23,864 bases of DNA from Promethearchaeota archaeon (GTDB lineage: Archaea; Asgardarchaeota; Lokiarchaeia; Sigyniarchaeales; SOKP01): the NCBI GenBank assembly GCA_048940925.1, contig JBHLOC010000041.1:1-23864 (forward strand). Direction: 5' to 3'. A program made the position numbers and the translations under genes. Below are positions 2,968 to 23,864 of the stretch, one piece after another. The notes under the pieces are model-generated. The model saw only the letters and a list, made by a program, of their open reading frames with translations, was not told the origin of the DNA and did not search any database. Every line of letters starts with the position of its first letter. The first letter of the stretch is position 1.

Positions 2968-3975
2968 TCATAACCTTTTTACAATTAATTCAGCCATACG
3001 GTTAGAGAAACCCCACTCATTATCATACCAGCTCAATACAAAAACTTCATCTTCGATAACCTTAGTCCAAAGACTACTGAATACTGAGCTGTGTGAATTG
3101 CCAATAATATCACTACTTACGATAGGGTCATCAACATAATCTAAGATGCCATTTAAATTATTATTAGAAGCCTCTTTCATCTTAGAATTTATTTCTTCAG
3201 CTGTACATCTATTTTCAACAATAGCTTTTAAATCAACTACACTCCCATCAAGCGTAGGAACTCTTACAGCAATACCATCTAATTTTCCTTTTAAATCAGG
3301 AAAAACTAATCCAATTGCTTTCGCAGCACCAGTTGAGGTTGGAATCATATTAGCAGCTGCTGCTCGTCCCCTTATCATTTTTTCAGGAGTTCCTGCTCTT
3401 GCAATATCAGCCGTTGTTTGATCATTTGTATAACTGTGAATTGTTGTCATTAGCCCATATTTTATGTTGAAATTTTCATGCAAGACTTTCACTACAGGTC
3501 CGAGGCAATTCGTCGTACACGAAGCATTTGAAATAATTTTATGCTCATTTGTGATCTTATCATCATTGCATCCGAGTACTACAGTTATATCTGGATCTGT
3601 AGCTGGAGCACTTATTAAAACTCTTTTGGCTCCAGCAGATAAATGTTTGCTAGCCCCTTCTCTATTAACAAATCGACCAGTACTTTCAACAGCGACATCA
3701 ATATTATTACTACTATGGGGCAAATTCGCGGGATCTCTCTCAGCTGTAATAGGAATATTCTTACCATGTATAATCAATGAATTTTCGGTGGATTCTACGT
3801 TTCCTTTAAATTTTCCGAAGACAGAATCATATTTTAAAGCATAAGCCAGATATTTTGGGTCAAAAAGGTCATTGATGGAAACAACATCAATATCATCCCA
3901 GAAATTATCATATATCGCTCTAAAAAATAATCGACCGATTCTTCCAAAACCATTAATTGCGACTCTTTTAGACAT
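2968..3975 (-). CDS. gap: class I glyceraldehyde-3-phosphate dehydrogenase
   Basis: INGFGRIGR NAD-binding motif, catalytic NASCTTNC, PTSTGAAKA, WYDNEWGFS; ATG at 3975 (MSKRVAING) preferred over GTG at 3984. Confidence 0.96.
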   Translation of the reverse strand: MSKRVAINGFGRIGRLFFRAIYDNFWDDIDVVSINDLFDPKYLAYALKYDSVFGKFKGNVESTENSLIIHGKNIPITAERDPANLPHSSNNIDVAVESTGRFVNREGASKHLSAGAKRVLISAPATDPDITVVLGCNDDKITNEHKIISNASCTTNCLGPVVKVLHENFNIKYGLMTTIHSYTNDQTTADIARAGTPEKMIRGRAAAANMIPTSTGAAKAIGLVFPDLKGKLDGIAVRVPTLDGSVVDLKAIVENRCTAEEINSKMKEASNNNLNGILDYVDDPIVSSDIIGNSHSSVFSSLWTKVIEDEVFVLSWYDNEWGFSNRMAELIVKRL

Positions 3976-4528
3976 ATTTATCACTTTTTTAAATTATTTT
4001 AAAATAAAAGAAATTACAATTCAAATATGTGGTAGATTATTTTTTAATTTTATAGTTTATATTTTTCTACATCAAAGAATGATACATGGGATATTTTTAG
4101 TGTAAGAAAATGAAAGTGAAAGCAAAAAATAGTTGATATTTGAGATTGAGTTTATTGCAGAAAGACTACTGTTCATTTTTTAGGTGTTTCATGCTGTAAA
4201 TTTAGTAGTATTTTTCTACACAAACAATTACTTCTCCTAAATTAATAATCTTATCCATAGCTTCATATTTTTATGATGCTATGCATACTACAAAAGTAAT
4301 TGAAATCATATTCTTATAATTTTTAGATTTGATTAAAAGAATGAAATTCTGATGGAGTATATTTTTGATGGGAATATAATGTTAACAATCTGAAAAAAAA
4401 CCGTAGGTTTAACATTTTCATGCATTAAATATTATCTACTTTTTAAAATCATAAATGAATCATAATAAAAACCTTTTTAATCAAGAAGAAGCTTGACATT
4501 ATAAATATTTAAAATTAAGTTTATTATA

Positions 4529-12316: not shown

Positions 12317-13429
12317 TTAATCATTTATTTTTAATGATATTTTTAAATCTTCTGCCATTTTTCCAAGTTTATTTGCCATAGCACTGATTTCTTCCATTGA
12401 GGCTGTTTGTTGTTCTGTTGATGCACTTATTCCTGTTATGGCACTGAATGAACTTTTAATTTTATTTACTACATTACTAATTTTTATGTTAGTATTCCGT
12501 ACAGCTAATTTTGATTCTTCGGCTAATTTTCTGACCTCATCAGCTACAACTGCAAAACCACGACCATATTCACCGGCTCTTCCTGCTTCAATACTCGCAT
12601 TAAGTGCAAGCAAATTTGTTTGATCTGAAATATTTGTAATTAAGTTCATTACATTACCTATATCACTCGTAGCTTTCATAACATCTTGAGTTTCTAAGGT
12701 CATATTTTGAGTAGATGAAGATATTTCTTCTGATGCAGCATTTACTTCACTCGCGCTAGCAGCTAACTCTGTCGCCATATTGGATACATTCAAGCTAGTT
12801 TCTGAAGCTGTTTTCACTACATTTTTTAAGGTACTACTCATTTGAATAATTCTATATTCTATGATTGCAACTAATCCCATAACTAAATAAATCGTATCCA
12901 TATAAGTCATAGCGAAGTTATTAAATTCTGTGCCAGTAGCAGTTTGAGAAGTACTTAACATAGCCCCAATTAAACTTAATATACCACCTATAAAGTTTAA
13001 GCAATAAAAGGCATGTAATAAAGATCGTTTTTTTAAATACAATCGAATAACTAAAACAAAACATAAAATTAAAAGACCAAGCATCATATAGTAAAAACCA
13101 AAAGTTATTGAACCCACAAGTCCAGCAGCACTATATTTAATAGTACTTTTTTTAGCTTGTTTCACTTTAATGAAAGTCTGGAAATATTCTTGACCTACTG
13201 CAAAAAGCAATATAAAAGTTCCTCCTGAGAATAGTATCATTGCTATAGGATTTACTTGGGTGGTAGAATCTTGGGGGAATGCATTAATTATATATCCAAT
13301 AGTGTTTACAGCGCATGAAATAAACCAAAACTTCAATTCTCTCCTTTTCATAAAAGCCACGAAAAATATTAAGGATGCAAAACTCATAATTACAGCATGA
13401 CATATATTCATCAAACTAATAACTGCCAT
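12317..13429 (-). CDS. methyl-accepting chemotaxis-like receptor, about 6-TM N-domain plus short signalling domain (paralog 1)
   Basis: Hairpin tip [40 protein letters not shown]; methylation-like ASEEISSS and [10 protein letters not shown]; six hydrophobic segments; no evident HAMP. Confidence 0.9.
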
Positions 13430-13557: not shown

Positions 13558-13667
13558 TTTTTTTATAAAATGTAAGTAAAAAAGTAAATATAGCTTAGCT
13601 ATTTAATATGTTTATAGCGTATTTTAACATTGAAATCTTTCTTTAAAAGAAAGGGTTGTTCAGGTAT

Positions 13668-15566
13668 ATGATGAGTATATATCAAGAATATAATAATCAC
13701 CTTGACGAAATATTTGCAAATTCATTTGATTATATATATCTTCACGATAAAGCAGGAAATGTTATTGATGTTAACGATGTTGTAATAAACAATCTTGGCT
13801 ATTCTAAACAAGAAATTCTTAATATGAAAGTTAGAGACTTTTTATTTGAAGATAATGTTGCTGAAATTCTTAGTGAAATTAAGAATACTATAAAAACTGG
13901 GTTAGTAAAAAAACCTAAAATATATAAAGTGAAAAAAAAGAATGGTAATTTTGTTTATATCGAAGCTAATGCAATCCCCATAAAAAAGAATGGCGAAATC
14001 TATGCTATTCTTGGAATTGGACATGATATAACCAAATATAAAGAAATGGAAGACAAATTAAAAATATCTGAAGAAAAATATAGAAATATTGTTGAAAATA
14101 CAACCGATGTTATAATAGTTACTCGATTCGATGGTAAACATCTTTATATTTCTCCTCAATATATGCAATTGCTTGGATATTCCGAACAAGAAGCAGATAA
14201 AGTAAATTTTGAGTTGATTCATCCAGATGATCGTCCAAAAATAATGAATCTCTATAGAAAATCAGTTGAAGAAAAGCAGACTCTTGTGGCGGAAATAGAA
14301 CAAAGATGGAAACATAAAGATGGTCATTATATATGGGTCGCTACCAAATCAAAAAATTATTACAATAAGGGAGGAGAGGTTATTGGTTGGATTACATCAA
14401 TTAGAGATATTACAGAACGTAAAAAAGCAGAATTGAAGTTAATAGAATCGGAAGAAAAATTCAGAACACTAGCAGAACAATCATTTATGGGGATTATAAT
14501 AATTCAAGGCGGAAAGCTTAAGTATATGAATAAAACATTGTCGGAAATTTCAGGTTATCCTGTTGAAGTGATGCTTAAATGGTCTGAAAAAGAAATTACC
14601 AAGATGATACATCCTGAAGATTTAAACCAGATGTTAAATCGCATAAGAAGTAATAAGGAAGAAAACATGGCTACGTTTTCTATTAATTCATTTAGAATAA
14701 TAAATAGAGATGGAGAAGTAAGATGGCTGGAAGATTACACCAGCAGAATCATTTATCAAGGAAAATTAGCGAACTTAGTTTCTCTTATTGACGTTACAGA
14801 TAAAAGGGAGGCAAATAGGCTAATTTTTGAGGAAAATAAGAGATTATTAGAGCTCAGTGAATTGAGGAAAGATCTCATTATTCGAGTCTCACATGAATTG
14901 AAGACTCCAATGACATCTATATATGGCGCGATTCAAATTCTAAATAAACTCTTTTTAGATGAAATCGGAGCTGAAGCTAAAAATTATATTGAAATTTGTC
15001 ATCGTGGATGTCTTAGACTAAAGGAATTAATTGATAACTTATTAGATGTTTCAAGATTAGATGCTAAAAGATTTCAATTAAATCTTCAGAGAGAAAATCT
15101 AAAGGAAATTATTATGGATTGTGCTTATGATATGAAATATTTGACCACTAATCGTAATCTTAAATTAAAATTAAATTTTTTAAAAGACATCTTTTATAAT
15201 GTAGATAAACTTCGTATCAGGCAGGTTTTGACAAATTTAATTTCAAATGCTATTAAAAACACTCCAAAGGGAGGAGATATTTCTATAAACTTAGCGGAAA
15301 CACCAGAATTAATTGAAATATGTGTTAAGGATACAGGAATAGGAATTACAAAGAAAGAACAAGAGAATTTATTTGAAAAATTCGGGAAAATAGAACGATA
15401 TGGTAAAAATCTAGATGTTGATATAGAAGGTTCCGGACTTGGATTATATATTTCAAAAGAAATAGTAGAATTGCACGGAGGGCAAATTCTTGTCGAATCT
15501 GAAGGAAGAAATAAAGGTTCTAATTTTAAAGTAAGATTTTTTAAAAAAATGACTAATAGAACTTAA
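13668..15566 (+). CDS. cytoplasmic PAS-domain sensor histidine kinase (3xPAS-HisKA-HATPase)
   Basis: Three PAS/PAC repeats (GHDIT, IHPDD..RDIT, IHPED..DVT), H-box SHELKTP, N-box NLISNAIK, DTGIGI, GSGLGL; ATG at 13668/13671 after AGGT preferred to TTG at 13656. Confidence 0.95.
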   Translation: MMSIYQEYNNHLDEIFANSFDYIYLHDKAGNVIDVNDVVINNLGYSKQEILNMKVRDFLFEDNVAEILSEIKNTIKTGLVKKPKIYKVKKKNGNFVYIEANAIPIKKNGEIYAILGIGHDITKYKEMEDKLKISEEKYRNIVENTTDVIIVTRFDGKHLYISPQYMQLLGYSEQEADKVNFELIHPDDRPKIMNLYRKSVEEKQTLVAEIEQRWKHKDGHYIWVATKSKNYYNKGGEVIGWITSIRDITERKKAELKLIESEEKFRTLAEQSFMGIIIIQGGKLKYMNKTLSEISGYPVEVMLKWSEKEITKMIHPEDLNQMLNRIRSNKEENMATFSINSFRIINRDGEVRWLEDYTSRIIYQGKLANLVSLIDVTDKREANRLIFEENKRLLELSELRKDLIIRVSHELKTPMTSIYGAIQILNKLFLDEIGAEAKNYIEICHRGCLRLKELIDNLLDVSRLDAKRFQLNLQRENLKEIIMDCAYDMKYLTTNRNLKLKLNFLKDIFYNVDKLRIRQVLTNLISNAIKNTPKGGDISINLAETPELIEICVKDTGIGITKKEQENLFEKFGKIERYGKNLDVDIEGSGLGLYISKEIVELHGGQILVESEGRNKGSNFKVRFFKKMTNRT

Positions 15567-15909: not shown

Positions 15910-17037
15910 TTACATTTTTTCGGTTTTAGTTAACGCACTTTTAAGATTGTCCGCTAGAGTTCCTAAATTATTTGCTAAAGCACTAATCTCTTCCATTGAA
16001 GCAGTTTGCTGCTCTGAAGAAGCACTTATTCCTTCAATTGCATCAAATGTCTTACTTATTTTATCTATTATAAAACTAACTTTGTTATATGATTCACCAA
16101 CAGCGTTTTGAGACTCTTCTGCTAATTTTCTGACTTCATCAGCTACAACAGAAAATCCTCTACCATATTCACCCGCCCTTCCTGCCTCAATGCTCGCATT
16201 CAGCGCAAGTAAATTGGTTTGTTCTGAAATATTTGTAATAATTTCCATAACATTATGGATATCACCAGTAGATCTCTTAATTTCCTGAGTCTCTCTTGCC
16301 ATTTCTTGAGTTGATGACGCAATTTCTTCTGCAGCTGCATTTACTTCGTTTGCACTTGCCGCCAATTCTGTTGCCATATTTGAAACATTGATGCTCATGG
16401 AAGAACTTTCATTAATTACATTCGTCAATGAATTTTGAAATCTGGTAATCCGTAATTCTAATAATGCAACAAGACCAGTTACGAACATCAAAGAAACAAA
16501 CACAGTAGTCATCCCTATCCCAAATTCATTTGTCTCAATAAGTTCTAAATCCCTTAATGTAGAAGATAGAATTGTAAGAGATGCTGCTATTAATGTAATA
16601 ATGAAAAACGCATAGGTAGGTGATCTATTTTTTATATACAATCTAAGCTGTAATATTATACTTATTAATGCTAAAATTAAGATAATAAATTCTGCTCCCA
16701 AAATAATAGGGACTACTGATAATATTACTCTAAGATTTTTACCTATTTCCTGATTCCAATTTTTTGATTTAATAAAAGTTGTATAATATTCATGAGTAAC
16801 TCCTATGAATATTATAATTACAGCTATGACAAAAAGTATATTCATAATGATACCTCCAGTTTCTCCGAGGAATTTACTAAATGAACTTAAGATTTGACCA
16901 ATCATAACTAAAAAATAGGAAGGGAACCATTTTATAAGATCGCGTCGCTTTGTGCAAACCCATCCAAAAATAATTGTGGCAAGAACAATTATAATAGTTG
17001 CTTGGTTATCTATAATTGTAAAATTTGTTTCTACCAT
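15910..17037 (-). CDS. methyl-accepting chemotaxis-like receptor, about 6-TM N-domain plus short signalling domain (paralog 2)
   Basis: [40 protein letters not shown]; [13 protein letters not shown] shared exactly with 12317..13429. Confidence 0.9.
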
Positions 17038-17233: not shown

Positions 17234-19174
17234 CTAACCTGATTTTCGTGTTACCCACACTATCATTTCACTTTTACCTCGATTAGCCCAAGCATAATAG
17301 GGAATAAAAATTTGTTTATTTTTTGATGTAAAACTTTCAATTTTGGAGTCTTGAACATAACATAAATTTCCGGTTATAGTAACGACTCCTTTTAGTATAT
17401 CCCTACGAAATTCTGCTATTAGTTCGACAGAGTCATCATACACCAGATTAAATATTGAATCTATTTCATTATCTATAGTTTCAAGACAATAAACAATAGG
17501 TCCCCGTTCAATAGCAAATTTATCTACATCATCCTCAACTTTATCATGACTTAATACCCTTCTGATAGGCATTGGTATATTTAATTCAATAGTATCATTG
17601 TCTTTCCATATACGCCGAATTTTAATAAAGCCTTTTTTCGGATGAACATCAAAATCTTTATTATTTACTTTAAACTTTATTTTTAAATCGGTAGGGTTTA
17701 AATAATGATATAAATCACTGGGAACTGGTTTATTTTGAGCCCAACCAGGAATTCGGATTGCAAGTTCAAACTCTCTCTTATGAGAAGGGTTTATTATGAT
17801 TTTCACTTTTCCTTTCCACGGATAATCAGTTTCTTGAGTAATTGAAATAATTATATTCTCAATAACTATCTGTACCATACTTCCGATAAATAAGTTAACA
17901 AAAATAGTCTTATCTTTTAGTGCATAAATAAAACTTGGAATTTGAGGCATAAAGCGTATAATATTAGTAGGACAACAAGGGCACTTCCACCAAGACCGTC
18001 TATATACGTTTCCTTTTGAAGCGAGGGGATTAATATAAAAAAATTTTGTACCATCTAAGGATATTCCTGAGAGAAAACCATTATATAATATTCGTTCTAA
18101 GACATCAATATATTTTGCATCTTCATAAAGTAAAAAAAGACGATGATTCCAGAAAATATTTCCAATAGCTGCACATGTTTCAGCATATGCTTTTAAGTTA
18201 GGCAATTTATAGTTTTCACCAAAACTTTCTCCTTCTTTACTAGCTCCAATCCCCCCAGTTAGATATAATTTTTTAGAGACCATATTCTCCCAAATTCGAC
18301 TAATAGCTTTCTTATATTCAGTTTCATTGAAAATAGATATAATATCTGTAACTGCTGAATACATATACGTTGCTCGAACAGCATGTCCTACAGCTTCATC
18401 TTGTTCAATAATTTTTTTATGAGATTGATTATATTCGGGTGATCGTGCATCTTCAAAATAAATCTTGAATTTAGATAAATAATCTTCAAAATCAAATGCT
18501 TCAGTAGAACCACGAATATCTAAGAAAAATTTTGCTAAATCTGAATATTTTTTATCCTTTGTAATATTGTATAGACGAATTAATGCTAATTCAATTTCTT
18601 GATGTCCTGGGATTCTTTCAAGCTTTTCTTGACCAAATTCTCTATCTATTAAATCTGCACTTTTAATTACTACATTTAATAATTTTTCTTTACCTGTAAC
18701 TTGGTAATAAGCAATACCTGCTTCAATGAGATGCCCCATATTGTATAATTCATGACTTAATATTGATACTAATTCCCATCTGTCTTTACCGGCCCATTTA
18801 TGAGGATTTTCAGGATTAATTGTACGTGTGGTGTATAAGTATCCGTCATCTTCTTGAGCTGCTGCTATTTTTTCTATTAAGTTATCGAGATATTTTTCGA
18901 ATTTGGGATCAGGATAATAGATCAATGAATATGCAGCTCCCTCAATTACTTTAAAGACATCAGAATCATCAAAAGGAAATATTGGTTTCTTTCCATCATT
19001 TAATACTCCTGCAGCTCTAGAAAAATTTTCAATTCGTCCAGTCTTCTCACATTTCTTTAGAACATGAGGAATTGTAATATAATGATTGATCTTTATTCTT
19101 GGAGCCCAAAATTTGTCAGTTAACTTTACGCTGTTCAGAGAAACTTGTCGTATTGAATGATTAAATGAACTCAA
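17234..19174 (-). CDS. glycoside hydrolase family 127 (beta-L-arabinofuranosidase-like, DUF1680)
   Basis: FDDSDVFK, HELYNMGH, GHQEIELAL, GHAVRATY, ETCAAIG, CPCCPTN Zn/Cys motif; TTG start after AAGGAG. Confidence 0.92.
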   Translation of the reverse strand: MSSFNHSIRQVSLNSVKLTDKFWAPRIKINHYITIPHVLKKCEKTGRIENFSRAAGVLNDGKKPIFPFDDSDVFKVIEGAAYSLIYYPDPKFEKYLDNLIEKIAAAQEDDGYLYTTRTINPENPHKWAGKDRWELVSILSHELYNMGHLIEAGIAYYQVTGKEKLLNVVIKSADLIDREFGQEKLERIPGHQEIELALIRLYNITKDKKYSDLAKFFLDIRGSTEAFDFEDYLSKFKIYFEDARSPEYNQSHKKIIEQDEAVGHAVRATYMYSAVTDIISIFNETEYKKAISRIWENMVSKKLYLTGGIGASKEGESFGENYKLPNLKAYAETCAAIGNIFWNHRLFLLYEDAKYIDVLERILYNGFLSGISLDGTKFFYINPLASKGNVYRRSWWKCPCCPTNIIRFMPQIPSFIYALKDKTIFVNLFIGSMVQIVIENIIISITQETDYPWKGKVKIIINPSHKREFELAIRIPGWAQNKPVPSDLYHYLNPTDLKIKFKVNNKDFDVHPKKGFIKIRRIWKDNDTIELNIPMPIRRVLSHDKVEDDVDKFAIERGPIVYCLETIDNEIDSIFNLVYDDSVELIAEFRRDILKGVVTITGNLCYVQDSKIESFTSKNKQIFIPYYAWANRGKSEMIVWVTRKSG

Positions 19175-19265
19175 TATAACTCCTTCTTATTTTTTTAAAT
19201 TATTTCAAGAAATATTGCTATAACTAATAAATAAAGTAAAATAATAGAATTTAAAAAAATTAGGA

Positions 19266-20420
19266 TTAGGTTTTTTCTAATTCCATCTGGGAAATAGCTT
19301 TTCCAGATCGAAATGGAATATCCTCAAGAGACATTCCCGCTTCATAATTGAATTTTTCTTTAAAGGCTTCATTTAATGACTGGAAATACAGCGATAACGG
19401 TAAGTTCTGTGGACAATTGTTATCGCAGTTTCCACATTCAACACAACGATCTGCATCATGAGCGATTCTTGTCAATTGATAGGTTGCTTTATCTATAGTT
19501 TTATCTTTTCTTTTCTTCATAAGAATGCAATCAACACAGTAACAAACCGGACATCCCCGGATACATGTATTACACATTGTGCATTTAAGTAATTCAGCCA
19601 TCTTTTCTTCTTGAGATAATTTGTTCCACTCTTCTAAATCTTTTGCTCTTTTTTCTTTTGCTTTTTCAATTATTTCGTCATATTTATCTGAATGAGTTTT
19701 TTTGATTTTATCTGGAAGTGATTTTTTGTTAATTCCTGATTTTTCCAATACATCACTTCCTTTATCTGAATATACTTTCAGGATAATCTCACCTGAATCA
19801 ATAGGAATACCAAGATCACTCACAGTTAAATCAGCAACGATGGGAATTTTACGATAACACCTCGAACAATTTTCGGCAACAGTAAGATTAAGTTCTTTAA
19901 TGCTTCCATCATCCATCATTACAATTAGACCTTTGTCTCCTACCTTTTCCTTGACAATTTTTGTAGCATCGACATCCTTAATTTTTCTCATTTCTCTTCC
20001 TGCTTTAGGAAGCATTCCTCTATCTTCAATCCCAATAACAAAAAGATTATCAAGTTTTACTTGTCTGATTTTAGCAAGCTCGATTAATGCTCTAGTGTCA
20101 CAAGGGCGTGCTATAAGCCCTACTTTTTCATTCATTGCCCCTTCTACTGATTTATGTAAAAACTTAGAAGCGGAATCAGTTCGTGCATATCCAAACGCTA
20201 TTAAAGGAGACAATGGAAAATCTTTTAGATCTTCTTCTTTTTCTACTAGTTTTGGCTGAACAGTAAACCTATCTGTTTCTCCAGATTTTTTATCAACTCT
20301 TAATTGAGCACCTATTATCTTATCAACTATCTTTTCTTTTAATAAAGTACTTAATATTATTGGAAAATCCTCCAACTTTATCAGATATTCTGCCATAGCT
20401 TCCATGTATTTCCAACTCAA
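19266..20420 (-). CDS. FdhB/FrhB-family Fe-S subunit (divergent), C-terminal 4Fe-4S dicluster
   Basis: RPCDTRALIELAK, NCSRC, CTMCNTCIRGCPVCYCVDC, CVECGNCDNNCP; the true start may be ATG at 20405 or 20396. Confidence 0.8.
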   Translation of the reverse strand: MSWKYMEAMAEYLIKLEDFPIILSTLLKEKIVDKIIGAQLRVDKKSGETDRFTVQPKLVEKEEDLKDFPLSPLIAFGYARTDSASKFLHKSVEGAMNEKVGLIARPCDTRALIELAKIRQVKLDNLFVIGIEDRGMLPKAGREMRKIKDVDATKIVKEKVGDKGLIVMMDDGSIKELNLTVAENCSRCYRKIPIVADLTVSDLGIPIDSGEIILKVYSDKGSDVLEKSGINKKSLPDKIKKTHSDKYDEIIEKAKEKRAKDLEEWNKLSQEEKMAELLKCTMCNTCIRGCPVCYCVDCILMKKRKDKTIDKATYQLTRIAHDADRCVECGNCDNNCPQNLPLSLYFQSLNEAFKEKFNYEAGMSLEDIPFRSGKAISQMELEKT

Positions 20421-20502
20421 AATATAAATTTAAATTTGTTCTTTATTTTTTTTCAAACATTAAATCTTTTAATATATTCATCTAAAATTTAAAATATTTT
20501 TT

Positions 20503-20575
20503 ATGTGTTTTATGGTGCACCCATTTCTTTAACTGAGCTCTCATTTTTTTAACTCAGCTTCATTAGATAACACAT
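20503..20575 (-). promoter_or_regulatory. candidate SECIS element in the 3' UTR of mvhD
   Basis: Minus-strand RNA: AUGUGUU..UCU-AAUGA-A-GCUGAGUU-AAAAAAAUGAG-AGCUCAGU-U-AA-AGA..AUGG-GUGCA-CCAU..AACACAU; AUGA core, 8-9 bp stem, A-rich loop, 7-bp outer helix; begins 7 nt after the stop of a UGA-containing gene. Confidence 0.6.
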
Positions 20576-20582
20576 TAATTTT

Positions 20583-21041
20583 TTAAGCTTTAGCTTTCGC
20601 TTTAGCTTTTTCTTTAGGCGTGCCTTTTTTCGGACGTAAGGGACTTGGTCCTAATTTACGTATGGTCTTATCGATTTTAATGGCTTCTTGTTGAAATTTC
20701 TGACCTTCAGCTGCAGTACAGTATATAATTTTTATTCTTTCTGGACTAAGTCCAACAACTTGTAAAATTTCTTTAATATACTCCACTTGACGATACGCAT
20801 AATAATTACCTGTCTCATAATCACATTCTCCAGGATATCAAGCATTAATAACCACACCATCAGCACCTCTTCCAAACGCTCGCATTATTAAATCAGGTCC
20901 TACCCGTCCACTACATGGTACTAAGACATTTCTAATGCTATCAGGATATTGAGCACGTATAGTACCTGCCATATCAGCACTGCCATAACCTCACTTCCAG
21001 CACGCATATACAATTATCTTAATATCATTATTTTCTGCCAT
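20583..21041 (-). CDS. mvhD: MvhD/VhuD [2Fe-2S] subunit, selenoprotein with two Sec (codons 17 and 68)
   Basis: ATG at 21041 after GAGGT; MAENNDIKIIVYACWK-U-GYGSADMAG...VPCSGRV...GADGVVINA-U-YPGECDY; in-frame TGA at 20991-20993 and 20838-20840 fall at conserved Cys; continues in frame into ORF 20583..20786; 152 aa. Confidence 0.92.
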
Positions 21042-21054
21042 TTTACTTACCTCT

Positions 21055-23031
21055 CTACTCTTCAATTGGTAATAATTCATCTACTAATGCCATATACTGA
21101 TCGTCTCTAAAATATGTTAACTCAATAGCTTTTGAAGGACAAAGCGAAGCGCAAGTTCCACAACCTCGACAATTTATTAAATTTACAACAATATTTCCTC
21201 TTTCATTTACTGATATTGCACTGTATGGACAGGCTTCTATGCATTTATAACATTTGGCACAACGCTCGTCTGATGGTGTAGCACGGATTAGTTCCATTGT
21301 ATATTCTCCTTTACTCATTGGAATACCTGCTACAGATGCTGCACCTCTAGCTTGACTGACAGTTTTATCAATCTCTTTTTGACCCTGTGCAGAACCACAA
21401 ATGTAAATACCTGGAACTTTTGTACTAATTGGATCAAGTCGAGCATGATATTCCTTTAAAAATCCATCTGGACTTTTCTCCATGTTCAGGACTTTAGCGA
21501 TCTCCATTGTACCTTGTGATGGCAGAGATGCAGATGATAATACCACCATATGAGCTTCCATTGTAACAACAGAATCTGTCCCAACTGGTTCAAATTGCAC
21601 TTTAAGATTTTTTGTCAAAGGATCTTCTTCAATTTTTCCAACTAATCCCTTTACAAAAATAATTCCAGCATTTCGAGAACGCCTATAATATTCTTCATAA
21701 TCTTTTCCCGCACATCGCATATCTATATATGTACATACAATTTGGGAATCGGGATATTCTGATTTAATTAATTTTGAGTTTTTAAGAGAAAGATTGCAAC
21801 AGATAACACTACAGTGAGCATTCTTATTTACATCTCTCGAACCAACGCAATTAATGAATATGATTTTTGTAGGGCGTTTACCATCAGATGGTCGTTTTAA
21901 GTGACCATAGGTAGGACCATTTGGAGCCAGTATCCTCTCTAATTCTATTTGATTAATAACATTATCATAAATACCATACCCATAATCGTCTCCTTTATAA
22001 AGATCCCAACCTGTAGCTACAATTATAGTACCAACTTTTAATTCTAATATTTTATCTTGTTGACTGAAATCAATCGCTTCTTGTTCACATGCATCAACGC
22101 ATGCAAAACATTCTACACAAACATTTCTATCGAGTTGTGATATTGCTGGTACTGCTTGAGCAAAAACAATATCAATAGCTTTTCTTGCAGATAAATGCTC
22201 ATCAAAATAATTACTCGTATATACTGGACAAACATCGGTACATGTTCCACAGCCAGTGCATTTATCTTCATCGACAAATCGGGCTTTTCTTCTAATTTTA
22301 ACCGTAAAATTTCCAATGTAGCCATCTATTTCGTCAACTTCGCTAAATGATAAAATTTCTATATTTGGATGTCGATTAGCTTCAAGCATTTTTGGACCCA
22401 GGATTCATATAGAACAATCATCTGTGGGAAAAGTTCTATCAAGTTGGGACATGCGTCCTCCAATTGTTGTATTTTTTTCTACTAAATAAACTTTATAACC
22501 AGCATCTCCTAAATCTATTGCTGCCGTTAAACCTGCTATTCCTCCACCCACAACTAAAGCAGTAGGTTCTACAGGGACAGTTTTAGTTGGAACATCTTCT
22601 AATAATTTTGCTCTGGCAATTCCTGCTTTAATCAATTCAATAGCTTTAAGTGTAGCCCTCTCACGGACTTCTGGAGCTTGATGTACAAATGAACAATGCT
22701 CACGAATATTTACAAACTCTAAATATCTTGGTGGTAAGCCCATCTCTTCCAAAATAGCATGAAAAACTGGTTCATGTGTTTTTGGAGTGCATGCAGCTAC
22801 CAAAATTCTATCAAATTTCCTCTCTTCATGCTTTTCCTTGATTTCACTCGACCCGCCTTCGGTACATAAGGAAAGGTAAGGGTAAGCCCAAACATTCTCT
22901 ATTTTATTAATTTCTTCGATAATTTTAGGAATATCTAAGATCCCAGCGATATTAATACCTCAATGACATACAAACACGCCTATTCTTAGCTTTTCTTCGA
23001 TATTATTATCCGTGGTCTGTTTTACAGACAC
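21055..23031 (-). CDS. hdrA: heterodisulfide reductase subunit A (flavin/Fe-S), selenoprotein with two Sec (codons 24 and 209)
   Basis: GTG at 23031 after AAGGTGA; RIGVFVCH-U-GINIAG (TGA 22960-22962), AACTP, NIREHCS, GGGIAG, FPTDDCSI-U-ILGPKM (TGA 22405-22407), CVGSR, CSVICC, ferredoxin motifs; joins ORFs 22405..22803 and 21055..22389 in one frame; 658 aa. Confidence 0.93.
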
Positions 23032-23090
23032 ATCGATCACCTTTGTTAAACCTAACCTCCTAAATTTTGAAAACTATATGCTTTGCTATC

Positions 23091-23113
23091 TTCTTAGAGA
23101 TTCTTTCTAAGAA
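23091..23113. promoter_or_regulatory. 8-7-8 inverted repeat upstream of hdrA (possible operator or hairpin)
   Basis: ttcttaga-gattctt-tctaagaa, about 60 bp upstream of the hdrA start. Confidence 0.35.
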
Positions 23114-23372
23114 ATGTATTATGATCTTGTAAATAGTCAATATTATTAAAATTAAATTATTATCAAATTTTAATTCAATTCTTCAATAATCTGATAATTT
23201 AATCGCAGTTCCTTTTTTAAGATCACTATTCTGATTTGAAATAACTAAATTCGACGTAATTCTCTCCAACTTTTACTGTTTTTCGTAATTTTCACAAAAA
23301 ATATGATTAATTTAGATCAAAATAAAAAGATTTTTTTTATTTATTTTAAATTTTTTAGTAGATTTTAGGTAT

Positions 23373-23864
23373 TTAAGGTAATATCCCTAATTCTTTCAAT
23401 TTTACTTCAGTAGGTCTTCCTGTATTCCAATCCCATCCACGAATATTATAATATTTTTTCAAATTTTCCTCTAAGTCAAGTTTTACTCCTTTAACTCTTC
23501 CTGATGATAAGATTTTCATATTATGATTTGGCAATCTATCGTCTTTTGTTGTAATTCCTAAATTACAGCTGATTATACGCTTCAAATTGTTTATACGCTC
23601 CCCAACTTTCATTAGTGATTTTCTATCATAATTAAACCCTGTAGCTGCATTAATGTATCCAATAATGTGCTCGAGTGAAGGATTTGCAAAGTTACAATTC
23701 ACAGCAGAATCATCAATAGCTCTGATATCTTGAAGATTTGCAATGCCTCTTTCGCTTCCTTTTATATTATTTCTTCCTTTACTTCTTTTTATACGTAATA
23801 TTGGATGATTTACATTCCCTAATTCAGCACCATACCAATCGCACTTGTTATGATTTGCTCCAAC
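23373..23864 (-). CDS. aldehyde:ferredoxin oxidoreductase family protein, C-terminal part (5' end beyond the window edge)
   Basis: Frame open from 23864: VGANH...DDSAVNCNF...GERINNLKR...DDRLP...YYNIRGWD..GRPT..KLKELG, typical of the AOR C-terminus. Confidence 0.88.
   Translation of the reverse strand, partial: VGANHNKCDWYGAELGNVNHPILRIKRSKGRNNIKGSERGIANLQDIRAIDDSAVNCNFANPSLEHIIGYINAATGFNYDRKSLMKVGERINNLKRIISCNLGITTKDDRLPNHNMKILSSGRVKGVKLDLEENLKKYYNIRGWDWNTGRPTEVKLKELGILP

Follow-up and report, generated by a model that had tools for sequence, protein, structure and literature searches.

Analysis of a 23,864-nucleotide (nt) stretch of DNA from a Promethearchaeota archaeon (GenBank assembly GCA_048940925.1, contig JBHLOC010000041.1, positions 1 to 23,864; hereafter the window) indicates that two adjacent genes, hdrA and mvhD, very likely constitute a Lokiarchaeial two-gene selenoprotein unit, in which four in-frame UGA codons are decoded as selenocysteine (Sec) through a single shared Sec insertion sequence (SECIS) of the lokiSECIS type. 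This reading is drawn from the sequence of the locus and its relatives, and its components are as follows.

21055 to 23040, minus strand: hdrA selenoprotein gene, 661 codons from a GTG at 23040, with the stop codon TAG at 21055-21057.
22960 to 22962, minus strand: UGA-1, codon 27 of hdrA, predicted Sec27, context VCH-U-GIN (VCH-U-GINIAGILDIPK), motif C25-H-U27 in the N-terminal Fe-S domain.
22405 to 22407, minus strand: UGA-2, codon 212 of hdrA, predicted Sec212, context DCSI-U-ILGPK, motif C209-x-x-U212, the canonical Sec position of HdrA.
20583 to 21041, minus strand: mvhD/vhuD selenoprotein gene (frhD in Huang et al. 2024), 152 amino acids, with the stop codon TAA.
20991 to 20993, minus strand: UGA-3, codon 17 of mvhD, predicted Sec17, context CWK-U-GYG, motif C14-x-x-U17.
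20838 to 20840, minus strand: UGA-4, codon 68 of mvhD, predicted Sec68, context INA-U-YPGEC, motif U68-x-x-x-x-C73.
20529 to 20563, minus strand: lokiSECIS hairpin, with AUGA, a 9-bp stem (AGCUGAGUU / AGCUCAGUU), an 11-nt loop (AAAAAAAUGAG) and then AA.

When TGA is translated as Sec the minus strand holds two uninterrupted frames, the stop of hdrA lying 13 nt from the start of mvhD, and there is no further in-frame stop and no frameshift in 813 codons. An earlier reading of this DNA, made from the letters alone (the original prediction), had proposed the four TGAs as the sole interruptions of two full-length proteins of 658 and 152 residues, which standard annotation would split; the coordinates and contexts found here match it exactly, the figure of 658 codons resulting from its use of the GTG at 23031 as the start of hdrA. 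Translation with table 11 does indeed break both genes, hdrA into open reading frames (ORFs) of 444 and 132 amino acids and the mvhD region into ORFs of 67, 44 and 30 amino acids; an exact look-up of three table 11 fragments in a protein collection gave no match, a result that says nothing either way. In comparisons of the locus with four orthologues, third-position substitutions dominate throughout, whether ahead of the TGAs, between them or beyond them (8, 3 and 79 by codon position for the middle hdrA segment against orthologue L081), which argues that translation runs on through the TGAs.

The read-through products are recognisable along their length. HdrA is a five-domain type I protein, with an N-terminal Fe-S domain, a flavin adenine dinucleotide (FAD)/thioredoxin-reductase domain and inserted and C-terminal ferredoxin domains (Fer4 and FAD-binding in Pfam), and it matches five solved HdrA chains in the PDB end to end over about residues 16-657, the best being 9sfi_A (E 7.9e-208) and 5odc_A (E 4.8e-191). 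MvhD covers the whole of the Pfam FlpD profile (positions 1-123 of 123, E 6.8e-41) and matches all solved MvhD/VhuD chains, with E values from 6.7e-36 to 1.7e-30.

The first base of the lokiSECIS, an element that the original prediction had not located, lies 19 nt past the mvhD stop, and the four UGAs are situated 275, 428, 1842 and 2397 nt upstream of the hairpin. As described by Mariotti et al. (2016, PMC4989117), a lokiSECIS has AUGA directly before a 9-bp stem that is capped by 11 nt of loop, the loop starting with five or more A and ending in G, usually as AG, and its 3' core is GA, or AA for VhuU only; the element here, with an A-rich loop in which adenines come first and AG last, matches every published feature except that AA stands in place of GA after the stem. 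A strict pattern for the element matched seven times in the genome (4.8 Mb) and never in its reversed sequence; for five of these matches a UGA-containing frame lies just before, in four cases a Sec-type hdrA/mvhD gene and in one a small frame with one UGA. A SECIS-like hairpin is found approximately 10-40 nt past the end of the last gene at each Sec-type hdrA/mvhD locus of this genome, and in 41 orthologues seven of the nine pairs of the stem show compensatory changes. A relaxed scan of positions 20200-23040 found no SECIS besides that at 20529-20563, and the four UGAs must therefore share one element. An Rfam scan of positions 19000-23864, with E values up to 10, matched no SECIS family, which agrees with the report of Mariotti et al. 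(PMC4989117) that standard SECIS tools overlook lokiSECIS elements.

There are several observations that count against this interpretation, and the first of them concerns the core of the element. The core is AUGA_AA here and AUGA_GA in all 40 orthologues (alignment A1, positions 20529-20530), a single G-to-A change that turns the A.G pair in the kink-turn quartet into A.A; it may represent a weakened signal of lower efficiency, or an error of base calling or assembly at one base. The proteins, for their part, score below the cut-offs of the NCBIfam equivalogs, HdrA with 746.8 bits for HdrA2 (cut-off 1100) and 621.2 bits for HdrA (cut-off 1400) and MvhD with 133.9 bits for VhuD (cut-off 215), and hdrBC is not adjacent, the nearest CCG-domain gene on the contig being approximately 13 kb away; many CCG-domain genes are present in the genome as a whole. 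By equivalog score, by the absence of adjacent hdrBC and by its host, the locus falls outside the methanogenic CoB-CoM HdrABC-MvhAGD system, and we suggest from the sequence that the module works like HdrA-MvhD.

The altered core gives some room to the best surviving alternative, which we consider improbable: that the UGAs are partly or wholly read as Cys, or terminate translation under selenium limitation, so that with a poor AA-core SECIS they would act as a regulatory bottleneck. AUGA_AA is found in this copy alone among the 41 orthologues, the genome carries many all-Cys hdrA-mvhD paralogues that could stand in, and Methanococcus is known to turn to Vhc in place of Vhu under selenium scarcity (PMC13518236). 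However, AA cores occur naturally in Lokiarchaeial selenoprotein genes, having been published for vhuU (PMC4989117) and, as AUGA_AA, for Lokiarchaeial hdrA/frhD (PMC11227280), and they are present at two further hdrA loci of this same genome (contigs C85 and C19); furthermore, the coding sequence shows no relaxation. As the AA core is both published and present at these two loci we have treated it as a tolerated variant, and with it the element belongs to a recognised variant class within the lokiSECIS family.

Decoding as Sec is further supported by what is found at the four columns in other copies of the genes. A tblastn search of the whole assembly revealed a large hdrA-mvhD family: columns 27 and 212 are TGA in five hdrA copies (contigs C29, C64, C41, C85 and C19), and Cys stands there in every non-TGA hdrA copy of the genome that could be aligned over the homologous domain, whilst four mvhD copies (this locus and three others) have TGA at columns 17 and 68 and the other 13 have Cys at both. 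The internal stops in the Sec-type loci of this genome are all TGA, and its Sec-type hdrA copies end in TAA or TAG. In 42 public loci from Promethearchaeota metagenome-assembled genomes (MAGs), with 52-92% identity in HdrA, columns 17 and 68 of mvhD are TGA in all 42; of the 41 in which the hdrA columns were scored, all have TGA at column 212 and 40 have it at column 27, the most distant one having TGT. TGT is also found at column 68 of mvhD in two more distant copies (L047 and L050). Each close orthologue recovered from a search of 40 same-genus genomes carries at least two TGAs. The stop codon of hdrA in the public loci is always TAA or TAG and never TGA, just as Mariotti et al. (PMC4989117) describe for the Lokiarchaeota pairs, in which UGA is never the hdrA stop.

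The same columns are occupied by Sec or Cys in solved structures. U212 lies opposite the X (Sec197) of Methanococcus maripaludis HdrA (9sfi_A) in a conserved DDC-x-x-U-IL motif, this protein being known to carry Sec197 (PMC13518236); U17 and U68 lie opposite the first and second X (Sec) of M. maripaludis VhuD (9sfi_K), and U27 lies opposite a Cys in the methanogen enzymes, 9sfi_A included. The proposal that all four TGAs stand at conserved Cys positions is therefore borne out by paralogues, orthologues and structures alike, and the relatives, in which a loss of Cys/TGA conservation would have spoken against it, have kept the columns. Across about 40 orthologous loci the Cys codons on either side shift between TGT and TGC, yet these four remain TGA, and chance can be excluded.

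It follows that there is very little to be said for the TGAs being true stops, with hdrA and mvhD either decaying pseudogenes or separate short fragments: table 11 does split both genes, but codons that are kept as TGA in some 40 orthologues, which range from 67 to 92% in protein identity, beside synonymously changing Cys codons, that fall on Cys columns only, that interrupt frames with third-position bias through every segment and no other lesion in 813 codons, and that are followed by a SECIS after the gene pair, do not resemble decay.

Several variations on the theme were noted among the copies and relatives. At HdrA column 59 (approximately 22864-22866, Cys in this locus) nine orthologues, including L091, L094, L103, L104 and L107-L110, have a third TGA, which points to a Cys/Sec toggle at this column among close relatives. 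The mvhD of L118 (CAZWEM010000009.1) has an in-frame TAA at column 15, two codons before the first Sec codon, and may be a broken copy or contain a sequencing error. In the genome under study the Sec-type hdrA at G000:C85:64812-66894 (plus strand) has three TGAs, the third at codon 407, and is followed directly by an AA-core SECIS; as it has no mvhD before its SECIS it is an exception to the rule that the genes are always in tandem. The mvhD frame at G000:C41:146064-146567 (plus strand) seems to stop at the UGA within the AUGA of its own SECIS, and the VhuU.1 frame is reported likewise to end in a SECIS AUGA (Mariotti et al., PMC4989117). Finally, contigs with near-identical loci bear the titles "Nanopelagicaceae bacterium", "Thorarchaeota", "Hermodarchaeota" and "Hodarchaeota" (L110, DATKTW010000168.1; L097; L081; L092), and these odd titles probably reflect mis-binned contigs or inconsistent taxonomic labels.

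The genome also encodes the means to insert Sec. The original prediction had named the Sec machinery as the thing to look for, and tRNA-Sec, SepSecS, PSTK, aSelB and selD were all found in the assembly: tRNA-Sec (63.7 bits with Rfam, SeC(tca) with ARAGORN) lies 0.5 kb from a gene for SepSecS (484.6 bits) and on the same contig, approximately 4 kb off, as a gene for aSelB that has the Pfam aSelB_III domain, its SelB TIGRFAM score of 240.3 being below the cut-off of 242.25. The PSTK is of the KTI12 family and scores 139.2 bits, below the TIGRFAM cut-off of 290.5, and there are two selD genes, each with one in-frame TGA. TGA nevertheless serves as a stop, terminating 262 of 1973 long ORFs genome-wide; within the window the ABC ATPase (262-1014) and GAPDH (2968-3984) genes, for which it had been proposed that TGA acts as a normal stop, are both Pfam-complete and do end in TGA. 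Stop-codon recoding has reportedly occurred in some Asgard lineages, but a genome-wide code change that made TGA a general sense codon, with no SECIS-directed Sec, is scarcely tenable against these terminations, a dedicated tRNA-Sec and Sec pathway, and in-frame TGAs that in hdrA and mvhD occur only at Cys columns, with a SECIS at every such locus; none was seen at non-Cys columns of conserved housekeeping genes.

With Sec decoding thus preferred, the following picture may be drawn. hdrA and mvhD would very probably be transcribed together, and Sec-tRNA(Sec) would be brought by the archaeal SelB/EFSec to all four UGAs, with the single eukaryote-like lokiSECIS 3' of mvhD directing the recoding of both genes; because it is placed after mvhD, the element would work at distances of 0.3 to 2.4 kb and, for the UGAs of hdrA, from beyond the end of the cistron. 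The HdrA product would carry one Sec in the CxxU motif by the bifurcating FAD and another in the N-terminal Fe-S domain, and the two Sec of MvhD would coincide in position with those of methanogen VhuD, so that Sec would replace Cys at redox-sensitive sites, namely the CxxU near the FAD and the Cys-rich motifs of MvhD. By analogy with solved Hdr complexes, electrons may pass from an fdhB-like input protein, encoded by the next gene downstream, to the [2Fe-2S] cluster of MvhD and on to the FAD of HdrA; the direction of this path, its donor and acceptor and the physiological substrates are, like co-transcription and Sec insertion themselves, what we infer from the arrangement of the genes and its known counterparts.

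The lokiSECIS does not stand alone in the predicted fold of the region after mvhD, but is held in a three-way junction together with two further helices.

20503 to 20575, minus strand: three-way junction made up of a basal helix, the SECIS stem and a side hairpin.
20575 to 20569 paired with 20509 to 20503, minus strand: basal helix AUGUGUU/AACACAU.
20524 to 20512, minus strand: side hairpin AUGG[GUGCA]CCAU.

Folded as a single sequence the junction has a minimum free energy of -18.2 kcal/mol (z = -3.5), and RNAalifold returns the same three helices from the 41 orthologous loci of alignment A1, among which the side hairpin is invariant, while in the basal helix one change is compensatory (AU to UA) and several others turn U-A into U-G. 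Paralogous selenoprotein genes, both in this genome and in more distant relatives (L126-L130, L042, L044, L045, L050, L120 and L121), are predicted to be followed by a junction of the same architecture whose helices are unrelated in sequence; its basal helices include CCGAA/UUCGG, CUGAAA/UUUCAG and UCGAUGG/CCAUCGA, and UGC is usually present in the loop of its 3' side hairpin. When folding energies were compared at eight elements of this genome, there were five at which only 1-9 of 300 shuffles did as well as the native flanks or better, and a topological shuffle test for a three-way junction did not discriminate, 42-184 of 300 shuffles passing in this AT-rich sequence. In MAFFT alignments across paralogous SECIS elements (A2 and A3) the basal helices are out of register. 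A covariance model built from the 41 orthologous junctions (R1), which scored 150 of 6513 candidates and is too sequence-specific for paralogous SECIS elements, matched only this locus (100.1 bits) and, weakly, one other. The weak match (G000:C27:34487-34557, minus strand; 22.6 bits, E 0.09) showed no UGA-containing frame upstream in a quick look.

Neither a three-way junction nor a side hairpin is mentioned in the available portions of Mariotti et al. (2016) and Huang et al. (2024). We put forward, as a tentative idea that could well prove wrong, that the unit recognised in Asgard SECIS elements is a three-way junction of the k-junction type, in which the AUGA/GA(AA) core, the basal helix and the side hairpin might be read together by an Asgard SECIS-binding factor, and which, placed as it is between mvhD and a conserved fdhB-like gene, might also serve as an intercistronic signal for four UGAs up to 2.4 kb upstream. 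If this were true, the GA-to-AA change peculiar to this genome would provide a natural test of how far the core can be altered.

The gene directly downstream of the SECIS is the one that would supply the input protein.

19266 to 20420, minus strand: fdhB-like flavo-iron-sulfur gene, with Pfam FrhB_FdhB_C and two [4Fe-4S] motifs.

The best PDB matches of its product are FdhB chains of Hdr complexes (9t1s_M, E 2e-39; 7bkb_E; 8rvu_E), and 38 of the 42 public loci have such a gene in the same orientation, 150-190 nt beyond mvhD; the protein is likely to be the electron-input partner of MvhD-HdrA. The spacer that separates it from the SECIS region is 80 nt long and AT-rich, with T-runs (near 20490-20475) and TATA-like runs. 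Elsewhere on the same strand, the upstream flank of the unit holds the C-terminal part of an aldehyde:ferredoxin oxidoreductase gene (23373-23864), where the contig (C29) extends past the end of the window, and the downstream flank holds a gene for a GH127 beta-L-arabinofuranosidase (17234-19174). Further away, two genes with methyl-accepting chemotaxis signalling domains flank one for a PAS-rich histidine kinase (12317-13429, minus strand; 13656-15566, plus strand; 15910-17037, minus strand), forming a bacterial-style sensory cluster in an Asgard genome.

That Sec-containing HdrA and VhuD are already on record in Lokiarchaeota, as the original prediction had stated, is correct, and the arrangement itself has been published (PMC4989117, PMC11227280). 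Mariotti et al. (2016, PMC4989117) described tandem HdrA-VhuD genes with very short spacers in Lokiarchaeota, HdrA having as many as four Sec, distributed among five candidate Cys columns that include the canonical one, and VhuD having two, with one lokiSECIS downstream of VhuD for both genes. The pair described here has the same order and strand, a spacer of 13 nt, a multi-Sec HdrA, a two-Sec VhuD and a single SECIS, and nothing essential separates it from that description; it uses two of the published HdrA Sec positions, and it has AA where GA is usual. Huang et al. (2024, PMC11227280) found the same families in 227 Asgard genomes, with hdrA-frhD clusters that carry a type I eSECIS-like element, and their catalogue shares with this genome the common SECIS, the AUGA_AA variant of Lokiarchaeia and multiple selD genes per genome. 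Their element is modelled with an upper and a lower stem on either side of an internal loop, whereas here a three-way junction with a side hairpin is predicted.

In comparison with the Hdr-Vhu-Fwd assembly of M. maripaludis (9sfi; PMC13518236), the predicted Sec residues U212, U17 and U68 occupy the same columns, HdrA has the same five domains, and MvhD corresponds to the [2Fe-2S] adaptor that links the input module to the FAD of HdrA. The differences are that M. maripaludis HdrA has one Sec, with Cys at the U27 column, that its SECIS is of the euryarchaeal GAA_A-bulge type, and that it belongs to a methanogen that reduces CoM-S-S-CoB, whereas the genes here come from a Loki-type archaeon and have no hdrBC beside them. 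The FdhAB-MvhD-HdrABC complexes (7bkb, 9t1s) and those of an MvhD-related protein with FdhB-like and HdrA subunits (8rvu, 8rvv) provide the closest relatives of the fdhB-like protein in the FdhB subunits that bind to MvhD-HdrA; unlike in the FdhAB-containing complexes, no gene for an fdhA-like catalytic subunit was seen beside the fdhB-like gene in the window.

The locus is thus an orthodox member of a class that was known in 2016 and catalogued in 2024. Its additions to that class are modest: a natural core of AA where 40 orthologues have GA, the three-way junction around the SECIS, and an fdhB-like gene conserved beside the pair. As standard gene callers fragment both genes, Loki-type genomes would seem to be without intact copies of selenium-dependent HdrA and MvhD. 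Whilst no new principle emerges from this locus, a SECIS shared over such a distance bears on the origin of Sec decoding in eukaryotes, and the unit provides a clean further example, beside those of Mariotti et al. and Huang et al., of several UGAs, spread over two cistrons and more than 2 kb, that are served by a single eukaryote-like SECIS.

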